Assembly (NCBI GenBank): GCA_033286805.1
Contig: GCA_033286805.1_4727.1
DNA: 64,000 bases
Reading direction: 5' to 3' (one strand)
Source: a phage
A model generated the notes under the pieces. That model was given only the letters and a program-made list of their open reading frames with translations. It ran no database searches and was not told where the DNA came from. Positions 25,754-31,083 of the stretch are shown here, one piece after another. The translations under genes and the position numbers were made by a program. Positions within the stretch are counted from its first letter, which is position 1, and every line of letters starts with the position of its first letter.

Positions 25754-26287
25754 TTAAGCTCCTTTGTGTTTTACGGACGATGTTAACCAGGACGATCTTA
25801 CCGTGAAACCCTCAGACTCGTAGAACGCCTGGGCTTCAGCGTTATCAGCACGAACATCCAGACCAATAGAATGCCCGCCGCATCGGTAAGCGATGTTGCG
25901 CGCTTCATTCATCAAGGCATGACCGATCCCACGTCCGCGATATTCGGGTTTTACAATAATCGATGTAACGTCATGAATGCCCATATGGCTCTCTGTATTC
26001 ACTTCCAAGAGGCCTACCGGTATCGAAGCGATAGCATCGATCATAACGACCAACATTGCAGTATCTGGTAAACGCTTTTCTAATTCTAAAGCATCGTACT
26101 CGCGTTTTAAATCGGGGATATTCTCAAACATAAACGTGGTAGCCCATGCCTCTGATTCTACATCGTCGAGAATACGGTACAGCTCACGAATCTGTCGTTT
26201 ATGTGGGTAAAGGTGTGGATCGGCAGCCGTTGAGGCGATAACGCAATAGAACTGTCGTTCATTAATAACTACTGTTTTGATGCTCAT
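25754..26287 (-). CDS. GNAT-family N-acetyltransferase
   Basis: Acetyl-CoA binding motif VKPEYRGRGIGHALMNEA and C-terminal AQAFYESEGF. Confidence 0.6.
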   Translation of the reverse strand: MSIKTVVINERQFYCVIASTAADPHLYPHKRQIRELYRILDDVESEAWATTFMFENIPDLKREYDALELEKRLPDTAMLVVMIDAIASIPVGLLEVNTESHMGIHDVTSIIVKPEYRGRGIGHALMNEARNIAYRCGGHSIGLDVRADNAEAQAFYESEGFTVRSSWLTSSVKHKGA

Positions 26288-26790
26288 GCTAAAATTCCCT
26301 CATTACCTAACAGTCGATTACGATGACGTCGGTACATTTGACAAAGTGTTGTGATTTGATAATGTTTGTTGTAACGTACCTCGATACGTTTTTGCACCTC
26401 TTTCCATGGAAGTTTATCGTATTGCCGATAACGATGGATTTCATTTAACATACGAAGACGAGTAGGATCGGTGTTCTTTATCGTCGTGAGCTTCACACGT
26501 TGATATCCACGCTGTAGTCCTGATTCGGAATACGTGACGTCAAACTCATCTTGAATGATGGTAATGATCTCCCGCCACCGACGGTTCTCGCCGTCACGTA
26601 AATGGACAACCCGCGATAAGATATCGTTCCGATTACGATGACTCAGTTTAATGTTAAGCATTGAAGCAATCGCGCTAATTGCTCTCTGACTCCGTCCTAA
26701 CGCTTCACCTATTTCTTTCGATGTCATGACGCCCGCGTTTCGGCGTATGAATGCGATTTCGGTTGTTGTGTATTCTTTACCTGCTGCCAT
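26284..26790 (-). CDS. Myb/SANT-like HTH protein, tandem paralog 1 of 6
   Basis: Modules YTTTEIAFIRRNAGVMTSKEIGEALGRSQRAISAI and WREIITIIQDEFDVTY shared with the five upstream ORFs; ATG verified at 26788-26790. Confidence 0.5.
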   Translation of the reverse strand: MAAGKEYTTTEIAFIRRNAGVMTSKEIGEALGRSQRAISAIASMLNIKLSHRNRNDILSRVVHLRDGENRRWREIITIIQDEFDVTYSESGLQRGYQRVKLTTIKNTDPTRLRMLNEIHRYRQYDKLPWKEVQKRIEVRYNKHYQITTLCQMYRRHRNRLLGNEGILA

Positions 26791-27254
26791 TTCTTACCAC
26801 GTGTGTTATAATAGTAACGCTGACAAAGATGTGTGTGACGGTACTCCCGTTTGAACTCGACGCTGATAATGCGAGCAACTTCTCTCCAGTTAACTCCTTC
26901 ATGCCGAAGTGCTGTAATACGGTCTGAAATTTTGCACCATTCATCTGGGTCGTATCGTCGTAGCTTGAGTCGTCGTATTACGGAGGCGACACTCGCTCTC
27001 GATCGGCCAAGATGATTTGACAGTTGTTTAACCGAGTATCTGTGGATATTGTCGCGAATATAGGAAATCTCGTTGTTCGTATATGCCTCATTGGTTCTCG
27101 ACGAAGGGAACAGCATATACAACTTATTCTTAATCGCGCTTTCTGTGCGTTGAAATACAATAGCCAGATCACTAACCGGTGGTCTGGGTATCTGATCCGC
27201 GTAACTCTCGAGGCGTGAGAGTTCCTCATCTGTCCAGCGACGGTATTTGCGCAT
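26724..27254 (-). CDS. Myb/SANT-like HTH protein, tandem paralog 2 of 6
   Basis: Start set at MRKYRRWTDEELSRL (ATG 27252-27254, preceded by AAAGGAG). Modules YTNNEISYIRDN..SVKQLSNHLGRS and WREVARIISVEF. Confidence 0.5.
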   Translation of the reverse strand: MRKYRRWTDEELSRLESYADQIPRPPVSDLAIVFQRTESAIKNKLYMLFPSSRTNEAYTNNEISYIRDNIHRYSVKQLSNHLGRSRASVASVIRRLKLRRYDPDEWCKISDRITALRHEGVNWREVARIISVEFKREYRHTHLCQRYYYNTRGKKWQQVKNTQQPKSHSYAETRAS

Positions 27255-27729
27255 AGGCAACTCCTTTGTTTTTCGTGTAGTAACACCAACGTTGATACAA
27301 CGCATGTTTATTCGTTGTAATCCCAAATTTAACAACAACGTCGTATGTGATAACATTCCAATTTTGGGTAACGTTAAGTCGTTCCGCGATAAACGCGATA
27401 ATCGCTTCCCGTTCTTGCTTGGTGAGCGCACGACGAATTCCATTAAGCCGTATAAACTGACGAACCGAGTCATACGAACGGTTTAAATCGTACGCAATCT
27501 CACGCAGCGATTTTTGTTTGATTACGGACTTGATGTACGCGCGTTCTTCTTCCGTATAAGGTCGATGCTTTTGGCGTTGACGTATTCCCAAACGTCCCAG
27601 ACGCGCGTCGATGCTGGCGCGTGTTCGTCCTGTCCGTTGTGCGATTTCATCAATCGTCATCGATGTGTTTAAGTACAGATGCGTGACGTCTTTCAGCTCG
27701 TCGTCACGCCATGGTTGAGATCGTCCCAT
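27226..27729 (-). CDS. Myb/SANT-like HTH protein, tandem paralog 3 of 6
   Basis: PWRDDELKDVTHLY; YTEEERAYIKSVIKQKSLREIAYDLNRS; WNVITYDVVVKF. ATG verified at 27727-27729. Confidence 0.5.
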   Translation of the reverse strand: MGRSQPWRDDELKDVTHLYLNTSMTIDEIAQRTGRTRASIDARLGRLGIRQRQKHRPYTEEERAYIKSVIKQKSLREIAYDLNRSYDSVRQFIRLNGIRRALTKQEREAIIAFIAERLNVTQNWNVITYDVVVKFGITTNKHALYQRWCYYTKNKGVAYAQIPSLDR

Positions 27730-28688: not shown

Positions 28689-28700
28689 AGTGCCACCCCA

Positions 28701-29021
28701 TTAACGTCTTACTTTAAGCGGTATTCTGTTTCGAAAACAATAACACCGGATGGCGTGTACGCTACGATTCATTATTTCAGCAATTTCATTTAGGCTATGC
28801 TTCTTCGCAAGCATAGCAACCCGGGTTCTTTCTTCTGGCGTGTAAACTCCCCCACGAGGAGGTAGGTCACCTCGTCGTTTCCTCAACTTGAGGTAACGTG
28901 CGCGAATAGAACACGGCGTCCGATCCATGCAGCGCGCTATTTCTTTATAGCTCGCTTTTGGTGACGTGCTAAGAATAAGTAGCAATGCTTCATCTTCTTT
29001 ATCCGTCCAACGTTTACCCAT
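28701..29021 (-). CDS. Myb/SANT-like HTH protein, tandem paralog 6 of 6 (short form)
   Basis: Start set at [14 protein letters not shown] (ATG 29019-29021, preceded by AAGGAG). Contains [28 protein letters not shown]. Confidence 0.5.
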
Positions 29022-31083
29022 CTTTTCTATTCTCCTTAACTTTATCAATCATCGAAATCAACATGTTGATACTTTCTTCTTCGTTATCTGTCGCATCCCA
29101 GTCTCGGATAACGGGAATCCCCAACGCTTCAGCTTTTGCGAGTTTACTGCCGGGATTACTTCCACAGATAACAACCGTTGTGTTTTTACTCACACCGCTT
29201 GTAATCGTGCCTCCCATGTTCGCTAAACGTGCGGCAAGCCGATTTCTATCGATGCCATTGAAACTTCCCGTGATAACGACCCGCGTATCTAATAACGTTA
29301 ACTGATTCGTATCACGTTCCTTAACTGGAGCTGGCGTTACACCGACATCGTACAACAGATCGAAGATATATCCACGATTTGCTTTATCGTAGATGTACGT
29401 TAAGATCTGATCGGCTGTGATCTCGCCAACACCATCAACGGCGAGTAAGCTTTCTTTATCAGCAGCTAAAAAGCTATCTACCGTCTTAAATGCGTTAGCA
29501 AGATCGCGTGCCGTGCTTTTACCCACTGTAAGAATACCTAACCCGTAAATGAAACGTGCTAGCGTAGTCTCTTTGGATTTCTGAATAGCATCGATCACCT
29601 TGAAGGCGCTGTAATCCGTAAACCCATCCAGTTGGCTAACCTGCTCACGAGTTAACAGATAGAGGTCAACCGCTGATTGCACCAACCCACAGTTGTAGAC
29701 CTGTTCCAGGAAGCGTTCACCGACACCTTCGATATCCATGACGTCACGACTCACCCAGTGAATCAGTCGTCCTACCGCTTGATCTGGACATGATGCGGTT
29801 GCAGGGCAACGCCAACGTGCCTCATCTTCCTTTTTCGTTAACGCGGTACCGCAGGTCGGACAACTCGTCGGGAAAATGATTTCTTTTCGTTCATCGCCCG
29901 GACGCACACTCACGATTTGAGGAATGACGTCACCCGCGCGGCGGATAACAACATCATCACCAACGCACACACCTAACCGTTTTATTTCGGCTTCGTTATG
30001 CAGTGTGATGTTACTTATCGTTGTGCCCCCGACGAACACAGGTTCAACGCGAGCCACTGGCGTGATGCTTCCGGTTCGACCGACTTGAAAATCAACGCCA
30101 AGCAAACGGGTAGCTTTTTCTTGCGCTGGGAATTTCCACGCACGTGCCCAACGCGGTGCGCGAGATGTTGCGCCCAGCTTCTCCTGCATTGCAACATCAT
30201 TCAGTTTTATCACCATACCGTCGATATCAAACGTACGATGCTCGCGTCCTGTAAGTATATCGCGATACGCCGTGATGACAGCTTCTGTCCCCACGGCGGT
30301 ATGGGACTCATTATACAGACCTAATCCTAATGCGGCAACAACCCCCATTTTTGAACCTTGCGTTGCGAACGTGTAAGCGTCATCACCATCCATGAAAACA
30401 TCGTAAGGACAGAACAACAAACGGCATTTTGCAACGGTTTGTGGGTCCAAACGTCGCAACGTACCTGACGCGGCATTACGCGGATTCACATACGGCTTTT
30501 CATTGTTTGCAATAAGTTCTCTGTTCAAGAATTCAAAGACGTAGTGTGGCATCAACACTTCACCACGAACTTCGATTTTCTGCGGTGTTAGTGTCCCCAT
30601 CTTCAATTGCGGTAAGACGCCCATTACCGTACGAATATTCGATGTAACATCTTCACCTTGAACGCCGTCCCCACGAGTTACCGCACGTTGCAACAAACCG
30701 TCCTCGTAATGAATCGCGATCGCTAACCCATCGTATTTGGGTTCGATCAAATACTCGAGTGTGTCTTCTGCTACCCCTAAGGTTTTTGCAATGGACTCCG
30801 TCCAATTCCGCAGCTCTTCTTCACTGAACAGGTTATCCAAAGACATCATCGGAGACGGATGCTTCACGGTCTCAAAACCATCGACCGGCGTACCTACACG
30901 ACGGGTTGGACTGTTAGGTGAAACCTGGTCCGGATGTTGTGCTTCGTATTCCCGTATCGTTCTCACCATGTTATCGTATTCTTCATCGGTATGTTTCGGT
31001 TCCGCTTTAACATGGTAATAGTAATCAGCTTCAAGGATCGTATCGATCAGTTTCAGATAGTCTGCTGTGGTGGTGATTTTCAT
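29014..31083 (-). CDS. ligA: NAD-dependent DNA ligase
   Basis: 689 aa. Adenylation motif [16 protein letters not shown] and [17 protein letters not shown]; four-Cys zinc finger [15 protein letters not shown]; C-terminal BRCT-like [12 protein letters not shown]. Strong colinear resemblance to bacterial LigA. ATG verified at 31081-31083. Confidence 0.9.

Follow-up and report, generated by a model that had tools for sequence, protein, structure and literature searches.

In this work, six consecutive genes (P1 to P6) were analysed in a 64,000-nucleotide stretch of phage DNA, contig GCA_033286805.1_4727.1 of assembly GCA_033286805.1, hereafter called the window. The genes lie in tandem on the minus strand at 26284-29021, between the genes for an NAD-dependent DNA ligase and a GNAT acetyltransferase. 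There is little doubt that their products are relatives of the D5 protein of phage T5, built from several helix-turn-helix (HTH) modules and predicted to bind double-stranded DNA. Judged from nucleotide comparison, the window is a close relative of the Escherichia coli jumbo phage Goslar; positions 26000-29300 have 96.2% nucleotide identity to Escherichia phage vB_EcoM_Goslar (Goslarvirus). Goslarvirus has been placed in the nucleus-forming family Chimalliviridae (bioRxiv 10.1101/2024.12.31.630880). P1 to P6 are the counterparts of Goslar gp119 to gp114, in that order, one of which is labelled "SANT/Myb domain-containing protein" in RefSeq and the other five "hypothetical protein".

Homology to the D5 protein of phage T5

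All six proteins matched PHROG 323 ("transcriptional regulator, D5-like"), with E-values of 7e-18, 8e-17, 3e-15, 3e-18, 3e-17, and 8e-10 for P1 to P6, respectively. T5 D5 (T5.118) matches the phrog_323 profile end to end (E 1e-71), and the matches of the array proteins are confined to approximately positions 92-270 of the 319 in this profile. When the profile of the array family was aligned with a profile of 25 diverse D5 homologues, hhalign gave a probability of 94.4% (E 8.6e-8) over 92 columns, which correspond to two consecutive modules. About four modules like those of the array proteins make up T5 D5 itself. Its full architecture (approximately 250 aa, four modules, and the D5 N-terminal region) was not found in any of the array proteins. 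According to its database record, T5 D5 is a DNA-binding protein that is needed both for DNA replication and for late transcription and has a part in shut-off; the primary source, cited in PMC12630848, is McCorquodale et al. (1979). In the T5 genome, ligB (66538-67317) is followed by D5 (67310-68077) with an overlap of 8 bp.

Paralogy and module architecture

An earlier reading of this DNA, made from its letters alone (the original prediction), had described six co-oriented open reading frames (ORFs) of 115-250 aa which encode paralogous Myb/SANT-like proteins with three common modules. The number of genes and their paralogy are supported here. BLASTP joined all six proteins by pairs at 40-91 bits (E 1e-6 to 1e-24, 22-38% identity). 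Twelve pairs among P1 to P6 were reported at 22-91 bits, nine of them at 35 bits or more, and the maximum in a composition-preserving shuffle control (n = 50) was 26.9 bits, so the proteins align with each other beyond chance. The lowest E-value was that of P3 and P4 (1e-24). P2 is the nearest paralogue of P1 (38% identity, E 2e-9), and the two genes still have a 57-nt DNA repeat in common. The six genes are therefore paralogous.

Three modules, A, B, and C, were defined by splitting the family alignment. Modules A and B are homologous (hhalign 97%, E 7e-11) and module C is more remote (E 8e-4 for B against C and 0.02 for A against C), which is consistent with C being a diverged HTH module. 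Three hidden Markov models (HMMs) of the modules, built from sequences excluding the P6 type, found one B (E 1e-9) and two C modules (E 1e-7 and 9e-6) in P6, and had no match beyond the array in the six-frame translation of the 64 kb window. P1 (28701-29021, 106 aa, gp119) is of the A-B type, and its ATG at 29021 follows AAGGAG. The A-B-C type comprises P2 (28221-28688, 155 aa, gp118), P3 (27704-28207, 167 aa, gp117, with a GTG start after AGGAGA), P4 (27226-27729, 167 aa, gp116), and P5 (26724-27254, 176 aa from MRKYRRW, gp115), the last with an additional 23-aa tail. P6 (26284-26790, 168 aa, gp114) is B-C-C, without module A and with module C doubled. Thus, the predicted modules are present as paralogous units, but the set of three is not common to all six proteins. 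The lengths also had to be revised. The mechanical ORFs of P1 to P6 are 115, 155, 167, 167, 249, and 168 aa long, and the likely lengths, taken from starts preceded by a ribosome-binding site and from the Goslar annotation, are 106, 155, 167, 167, 176, and 168 aa, so the range narrows to 106-176 aa.

The comparison set consisted of ten related loci. In the loci L004, L005, and L015, the P1 orthologues are of the A-B-C type (152-160 aa), and because these three other lineages retain module C, its absence from P1 of the window is a loss in the Goslar lineage. Module C itself seems to be specific to the Goslar-like lineage and appears new. The 23-aa C-terminal tail of P5 extends into the P6 reading frame; P5 orthologues of the L004 type (152-154 aa) are without it. 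In the Goslar annotation, gp114 (P6) starts from an internal ATG and has 147 aa. The longer start gives back helix 1 of the first module (module B), which is the N-terminal YTTTEIAFIRRNAG. This N-terminus is kept in L004 and in P0012/P0013, where P6 does not overlap with the preceding gene, and the long start is favoured because of this conservation.

Predicted fold, charge, and generic HTH matches

With AlphaFold2 on the family alignment, P3 was predicted as nine helices in three three-helix bundles with a predicted local distance difference test (pLDDT) score of 85, and P6 showed the same 3 x 3 layout of nine helices (pLDDT 76). The three-helix bundle with a helix-turn-helix, which defines the Myb/SANT fold, is thus present in both models. 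Grouped with them under this fold are the HTH proteins Tc3 transposase, phage small terminase, DeoR, and sigma region 4, and furthermore c-Myb R1/R2, WER, Reb1, CENP-B, Rap1, and Cbp2. All six array proteins are strongly basic, with an isoelectric point of 9.7-10.5 and a net charge of +11 to +16.

The Pfam matches are of a generic HTH kind. P1 matched Myb_DNA-binding at 34 bits (cut-off 24.4) and Myb_DNA-bind_6 at 33.5 bits; P2 (33.7 bits), P3 (27.5 bits), and P4 matched Sigma70_r4_2 above its cut-off; and P5 and P6 had only weak matches within the HTH clan. Module C of P3 matched Myb_DNA-bind_6 at 28 bits (cut-off 22.9, E 2.5e-6). The Myb models (PF00249 and PF13921) remained under the gathering cut-off in P2, P4, P5, and P6, and just two modules, P1 module A and P3 module C, passed the Myb cut-offs. 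Moreover, the three regularly spaced Trp or aromatic residues of Myb repeats are not conserved. Tryptophan is conserved only at its first position in module A and at one position in module C, and the other Myb core positions are occupied by I, L, or Y. The assignment to Myb/SANT-like DNA binders therefore stands at the level of fold and clan (the bundles of P3 and P6, the Myb or Sigma70_r4_2 matches in P1-P4) and not as strict Myb membership.

Several more specific assignments were rejected. A sigma-70 family factor was dismissed on Pfam matches restricted to Sigma70_r4/r4_2, with no region 2 or 3, and on scores of 16-20 bits with the NCBIfam sigma models, far under their cut-offs. Of the profiles proposed for comparison in the original prediction, Myb and sigma region 4 matched some members, but GcrA did not apply, as neither a profile match nor the C-terminal sigma-interacting domain of that family was found. 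A link between GcrA and methylation was also dropped, because neither the window nor Goslar has the D12 adenine methylase that lies upstream in L002-L007. This D12-class N6-adenine DNA methyltransferase gene is located upstream of the ligase (approximately 900-2200 in L002-L007, corresponding to the window region at approximately 32300-32800), and in L007 it is broken into two ORFs. Finally, HNH homing endonucleases were rejected; the PHROG HNH matches span only the HTH part of the profiles, and no nuclease family was found in Pfam.

Allelic exchange and selection in the array

The array is much more diverged than its surroundings. Between the window and L004, the amino-acid identity was 94% for the ligase, 89% for the acetyltransferase, 93% for the next gene downstream, and 89% for P6, and decreased to 52% for P1, 46% for P3, 38% for P4, and 47% for P5, with saturated synonymous sites in these four genes. 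In 200-nt bins, the nucleotide identity was approximately 0.9 on both sides and 0.1-0.6 exactly from ~29000 to ~26800. Overall, P1-P5 have approximately 50% nucleotide identity and the flanks approximately 90%. P6 behaves like the flanks and is the most conserved member of the array (88-100% across lineages). In comparison with L005, P2 and P5-P6 are in places more alike than the flanks. L015 mixes a window-like P2 (90%) with L004-like P3-P5 (38-48%), and P0008 is a chimera of two P3 types. Because of this sharp divergence island, the mosaic combinations of alleles, and the chimeric P3, P1-P5 are best read as ancient allelic classes that have been shuffled by recombination among otherwise closely related phages; such a cassette appears new. 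The strong divergence of the copies and their number, five or six in the ten loci, agree with the diversified family of the original prediction.

The array is under purifying selection throughout. The ratio of nonsynonymous to synonymous substitution rates (dN/dS) was 0.14-0.38 for P1-P5 and 0.05-0.07 for the flanks in the pair of the window and Goslar, and 0.06-0.36 in the pair of the window and L005, giving 0.06-0.38 overall where dS was measurable. Within orthologous groups, helix 3 was the most conserved element, with a mismatch of 0.33-0.39 compared to 0.42-0.50 for helix 1 and loops (the helix boundaries in this comparison are shifted by one residue, which does not affect the conclusions). 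Each paralogue retains its own signature of helix 3, the recognition helix, across very divergent orthologues. An arms race via hypervariable recognition helices was rejected on this ground: helix 3 would be expected to be the most variable element and was found to be the most conserved. Since helix 3 is slightly more conserved than helix 1 and loops, the divergence does not seem to be focused on the presumed DNA-reading surface.

Distribution of the array and of related modules

In a word-indexed profile search of 5.8 billion proteins, only contigs of the Goslar-like type, 134-248 kb in length, had the A-B-C architecture. HMMER, run exhaustively over 1.84 billion representatives, yielded 13,228 proteins at E <= 1e-3, the top matches being proteins of 300-900 aa in which the A+B pair matches 4-9 times each. 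Related modules occur free-standing in phages of Listeria, Leptospira, and Geobacillus; in mycobacteriophages, they form fusion proteins with HNH endonucleases or methylases. In IMG/VR, the array was present in Goslar and one relative, and no match to it was obtained in complete E. coli genomes or in the GTDB representatives. The expansion to five or six genes thus seems limited to Goslar-like phages and appears new.

Among the ten related loci, the gene order from P1 to P6 is fixed. P2 is missing from the L002-L004 haplotype, and in L013 P1 is missing and a gp120-like gene follows the ligase instead. The array ORFs are intact in nearly all of these relatives. The exception is the P4 orthologue of L002 (Logan assembly, SRR13358407; 6503-6796 and the following ORF), which is in two pieces of 97 aa and 60 aa and could be either a pseudogene or an assembly error.

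Gene neighbourhood and expression context

The ligase gene (29014-31083, minus strand, 689 aa) is the upstream neighbour in the same gap-free gene run, and the acetyltransferase gene (25754-26287, minus strand, 177 aa; Pfam Acetyltransf_1/7/10 in orthologues) is the downstream neighbour. A class I S-adenosylmethionine (SAM) methyltransferase is also a neighbour of the array, so both enzyme types named in the original prediction were recovered, by the Goslar annotation and by Pfam matches in relatives. Likewise, overlaps of 25-70 bp had been noted, and 26 bp (P3/P4), 29 bp (P4/P5), and 67 bp (P5/P6, counting from the long P6 start) were found, in addition to 8 bp between the ligase and P1 and 4 bp (ATGA) between P6 and the acetyltransferase. 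Goslar has an additional, unrelated 235-aa gene, gp120 (L001 7027-7734), between the ligase and gp119, which has no PHROG match. Because a gp120-like gene is present at this junction in Goslar and L013 and absent from the window, L009, L004, and L005, the ligase/array junction (approximately 29014-29021 in the window) is exactly the site of an insertion/deletion hot spot.

From 31392 to 23927, a stretch which spans the head of the ligase operon and the array, all intergenic gaps are shorter than 40 nt. The gap at 31392-31471 contains, on the minus strand at 31405-31462, a GC-rich hairpin (-33.1 kcal/mol, z -4.7) followed directly by GTTATGCTG, which is a candidate terminator/promoter junction heading the gene run of ligase and array. 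It is one copy of a recurrent intergenic element, in which a GC-rich hairpin (CCCTCC...GGAGGG type, z -2.6 to -5.3) is followed at once by (T)TTATGC(C/T)G. Further copies are located on the minus strand at 18420-18470, 39890-39935, 47860-47905, 60225-60275, 53500-53550, 6425-6470, and 11960-12010, and on the plus strand at 1945-2006 and 41495-41552. Three copies (1949-2006, 41495-41552, and the inverted 6425-6467) are approximately 81-88% identical over 43-58 nt. TTATGCYG occurs 14 times compared to 3.75 expected, and none of 100 shuffles reached 14. Late promoters of the non-virion RNA polymerase of phiKZ have a TATG motif at the start site, and the promoters of this polymerase are only partly defined (PMC4666361). 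By analogy, the hairpin-TTATGC element resembles a terminator joined to a TATG promoter of the phiKZ type, placed at the boundaries of transcription units.

Co-expression of the array with the ligase is suggested by their position in one gap-free gene run, and the analogy with phiKZ suggests that a phage-polymerase promoter would drive both. In nucleus-forming jumbo phages, the genome is transcribed by RNA polymerases of the phage itself. In a scan of 23.5-33.5 kb, sigma-70 promoters (10 compared to 16.7 expected) and intrinsic terminators (8 compared to 9.7) were not enriched; no sigma-70 signal is expected, because the phage is independent of the host RNA polymerase. Repeated DNA motifs were checked for possible binding sites; the hairpin-TTATGC element was the only conspicuous one, and there is no link between it and the array proteins. 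An RNA-seq time course of Goslar is available (PMC10541120).

Two other features of the window were observed. Downstream of the array operon, three AT-rich gaps (68-73% AT; 21683-21790, 23202-23283, and 23884-23927) are without the hairpin-TTATGC element, one of them contains an A10 run, and they may be a different class of promoter. The ORF at 7441-11319 on the minus strand encodes a tail-fibre-like protein of 1292 aa with a glycine-rich C-terminus. Within it, at 8102-9649, there are at least seven copies of a 120-nt tandem repeat (61-73% identical), which encode 40-aa units (GNAATATKLQTARTIGGVSFDGTANIxLPGVN...) that are ordinary for phage fibres.

Proposed function and alternative explanations

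We hypothesize that the T5 D5-like family has been expanded in tandem at this locus, specifically in Goslarvirus. Each protein would consist of two or three three-helix HTH modules on short basic linkers and, like c-Myb R2R3 and Cbp1/Cbp2, would bind double-stranded DNA in monomeric form. The third helix of consecutive modules would be placed in successive positions of the major groove, as in those proteins, so that the site recognized by each protein would be extended and asymmetric. The six paralogues probably favour different sequences, because their helix-3 signatures are specific to each paralogue and conserved across orthologues. The array would act on the DNA of the phage itself and organize or switch its replication or transcription programme; this target is favoured because of the homology and synteny with T5 D5, which acts in replication, late transcription, and early-gene shut-off. 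Taken as a whole, sequence-selective binding of double-stranded DNA by a D5-like array that regulates phage replication or transcription is the best explanation, and we give it an even chance. The single claim that the array proteins regulate phage replication or transcription, which follows the analogy with T5 D5, is tentative and is placed slightly below that.

Several observations weigh against this proposal. The array profile reached only 55% hhalign probability with the single T5 D5 sequence. T5 D5 is the product of one gene and has approximately 250 aa, four modules, and an N-terminus of its own, whereas the six genes of the array encode proteins of 106-176 aa in which there are two or three modules. 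Module C has no counterpart in T5 D5. The Goslar ligase clusters with jumbo-phage ligases, and T5 is not among the best 40 of 176 matches. The nearest ligases outside Goslar (approximately 40-43% identity) are those of the chimalliviruses Serratia phage Moabite and Ralstonia phage RSL2, and there is no D5-like gene within 5 kb of either; the linkage of ligase and D5 is thus not general, and the synteny may be coincidental. By tblastn (E <= 1e-3), the array family is absent from all sequenced phages other than Goslar. Because it is missing from these and from beside the Moabite and RSL2 ligases, it is not part of the core chimallivirus programme. Moreover, the wholesale replacement of P1-P5 by alleles of 38-52% identity would be less expected of essential regulators than of accessory or conflict genes, and the searchable literature contains no experiment on the gp114-gp119 proteins.

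The same features can be read as those of conflict factors aimed outward, which would bind the DNA of the host or of rival phages, or mimic sigma region 4 on the host RNA polymerase. They would serve in host shut-off, exclusion of co-infecting relatives, or anti-defence, and the cassette would be diversified by frequency-dependent selection. Such a role fits a lineage-restricted, accessory array of five or six copies with a sharp divergence island and mosaic alleles in P1-P5, the dN/dS above that of the flanks in the closest comparison, the Sigma70_r4_2 matches in P2-P4, and the acetyltransferase and SAM methyltransferase as neighbours. However, variation is not concentrated in the recognition helices, the sigma-like matches are generic HTH matches without region 2, and homology and synteny indicate a replication or transcription factor, so we regard the outward role as rather unlikely. 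Non-specific coating or architectural proteins, histone-like or nucleoid-associated, on the DNA in the phage nucleus are somewhat less probable again. T5 D5 is known from the work of 1979-80 as an abundant and cooperative double-stranded-DNA-binding protein, and the high positive charge of the array proteins would suit this role. It would also fit that virion preparations of phiR2-01, a T5-like phage, contained a D5 homologue as one of their abundant proteins (PMC8624392). On the other hand, a single gene would suffice for coating, and it is hard to explain by it why six paralogues of 22-38% identity each keep a recognition-helix signature of their own.

It is also conceivable that the modules once served homing endonucleases or other selfish elements as DNA-binding domains, accumulated at a hot spot, and have since decayed or been domesticated, with no function for the phage. 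They match the HNH-annotated phrog_1891, 8446, and 7545 at E 1e-6 to 3e-9, the mycobacteriophage fusions described above join related modules to HNH endonucleases and methylases, and the unrelated gp120 comes and goes at the ligase/P1 junction. But no nuclease domain was found anywhere in the array with Pfam or PHROGs, the gene order is fixed and the ORFs are intact in nearly all of the ten relatives, dN/dS is well under 1, and the array is compact, with overlaps into the flanking core genes; this origin is highly improbable. Chance resemblance or non-coding ORFs can be practically dismissed, being refuted by the shuffle control, the module HMMs built without P6, the dN/dS values, and the intact ORFs in relatives.

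The proposal of a D5-like array acting on phage DNA can be extended. The array could be a self-contained, recombining set of sequence-specific regulators that is imported into the phage nucleus and programmes temporal or persistent-infection behaviour, with its alleles as regulatory or incompatibility types. This extension is improbable, although it would, if true, be the first transcription-factor network described for a chimallivirus. Of the known Goslar-like genomes, 59 of 60 are from persistently infected bacterial isolates (bioRxiv 10.1101/2024.12.31.630880), and a link between this lifestyle and an enlarged set of regulators is speculation. More generally, the six D5-like proteins are concrete candidates for regulators or DNA organizers in Goslar, the E. 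coli model chimallivirus. Phage transcription factors are not discussed in the recent reviews of nucleus-forming jumbo phages that were searched. P1-P5 mark a hot spot of recombination and diversification, which could be of use for typing and may be a sign that related phages are incompatible or in conflict.

Comparison with known systems

Neither the fold nor the domain type nor the phage family is new, and no new principle is involved; tandem-HTH DNA binders and their expansion in large phages have been described before. The array had been presented in the original prediction as no described system, which is not correct for the proteins, as they fall in PHROG 323 with the characterized T5 D5 as archetype, but is correct for the array, which is treated in no paper of the searchable literature. 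The D5 kinship of Goslar gp114-gp119, the A-B-C architecture, the array of five or six genes, and the P1-P5 cassette are not described there, and no paper pairs Goslar with gp114-gp119.

T5 D5 shares with the array the tandem HTH modules of the same type, and D5 homologues have the same weak Pfam labels (Sigma70_r4_2, Myb, and HTH_23). Its gene directly follows an NAD-dependent ligase gene with the same 8-bp overlap as P1, a shared trait and not a formal criterion. The biological setting is different, since Goslar is a nucleus-forming jumbo phage with its own RNA polymerases, whereas T5 relies on the host RNA polymerase. The metagenomic poly-HTH repeat proteins of 300-900 aa also belong to PHROG 323 (E 1e-70 to 1e-110) and have either no name or a generic label. 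They have 8-18 modules in one polypeptide and are without module C, whereas the modules of the array are spread over six genes.

The best solved-structure match by sequence was Cbp2 (2LVS, E 7e-9, over A+B). Cbp1 and Cbp2 have two or three imperfect tandem homeodomain-like HTH repeats (three in Cbp1) with basic linkers and bind DNA as monomers, and Cbp2 binds CRISPR repeat DNA (PMC3597662). The array proteins scored 18.9 and 16.3 bits with NCBIfam HTH_Cbp1, far under the cut-off of 140, so they are not Cbp1 members and Cbp2 is an analogue. Furthermore, Cbp1 and Cbp2 come from crenarchaea and are tied to CRISPR, whereas the array is found in a phage and has no CRISPR context. The next sequence match in the PDB was the c-Myb structure 1h88 (E 5e-6). 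The eukaryotic Myb/SANT proteins (c-Myb R1R2R3, WER, SNAPC4, and Cdc5) have tandem three-helix repeats of approximately 50 aa, as in the array, but their regular tryptophans are missing here, and most array modules fit sigma-r4-like or generic HTH models better.

In the G-group jumbo phages of Bacillus, RsfA-like Myb-type HTH proteins are expanded and have been read as phage-encoded transcription factors (Iyer et al., 2021, PMC7824862); the Goslar array is not listed in that work. These phages do not belong to chimallivirus group 1, their proteins are of the RsfA-like subfamily, and they are likened to the array by description only. What the two have in common is that Myb-type HTH proteins have multiplied within one lineage of jumbo phages.

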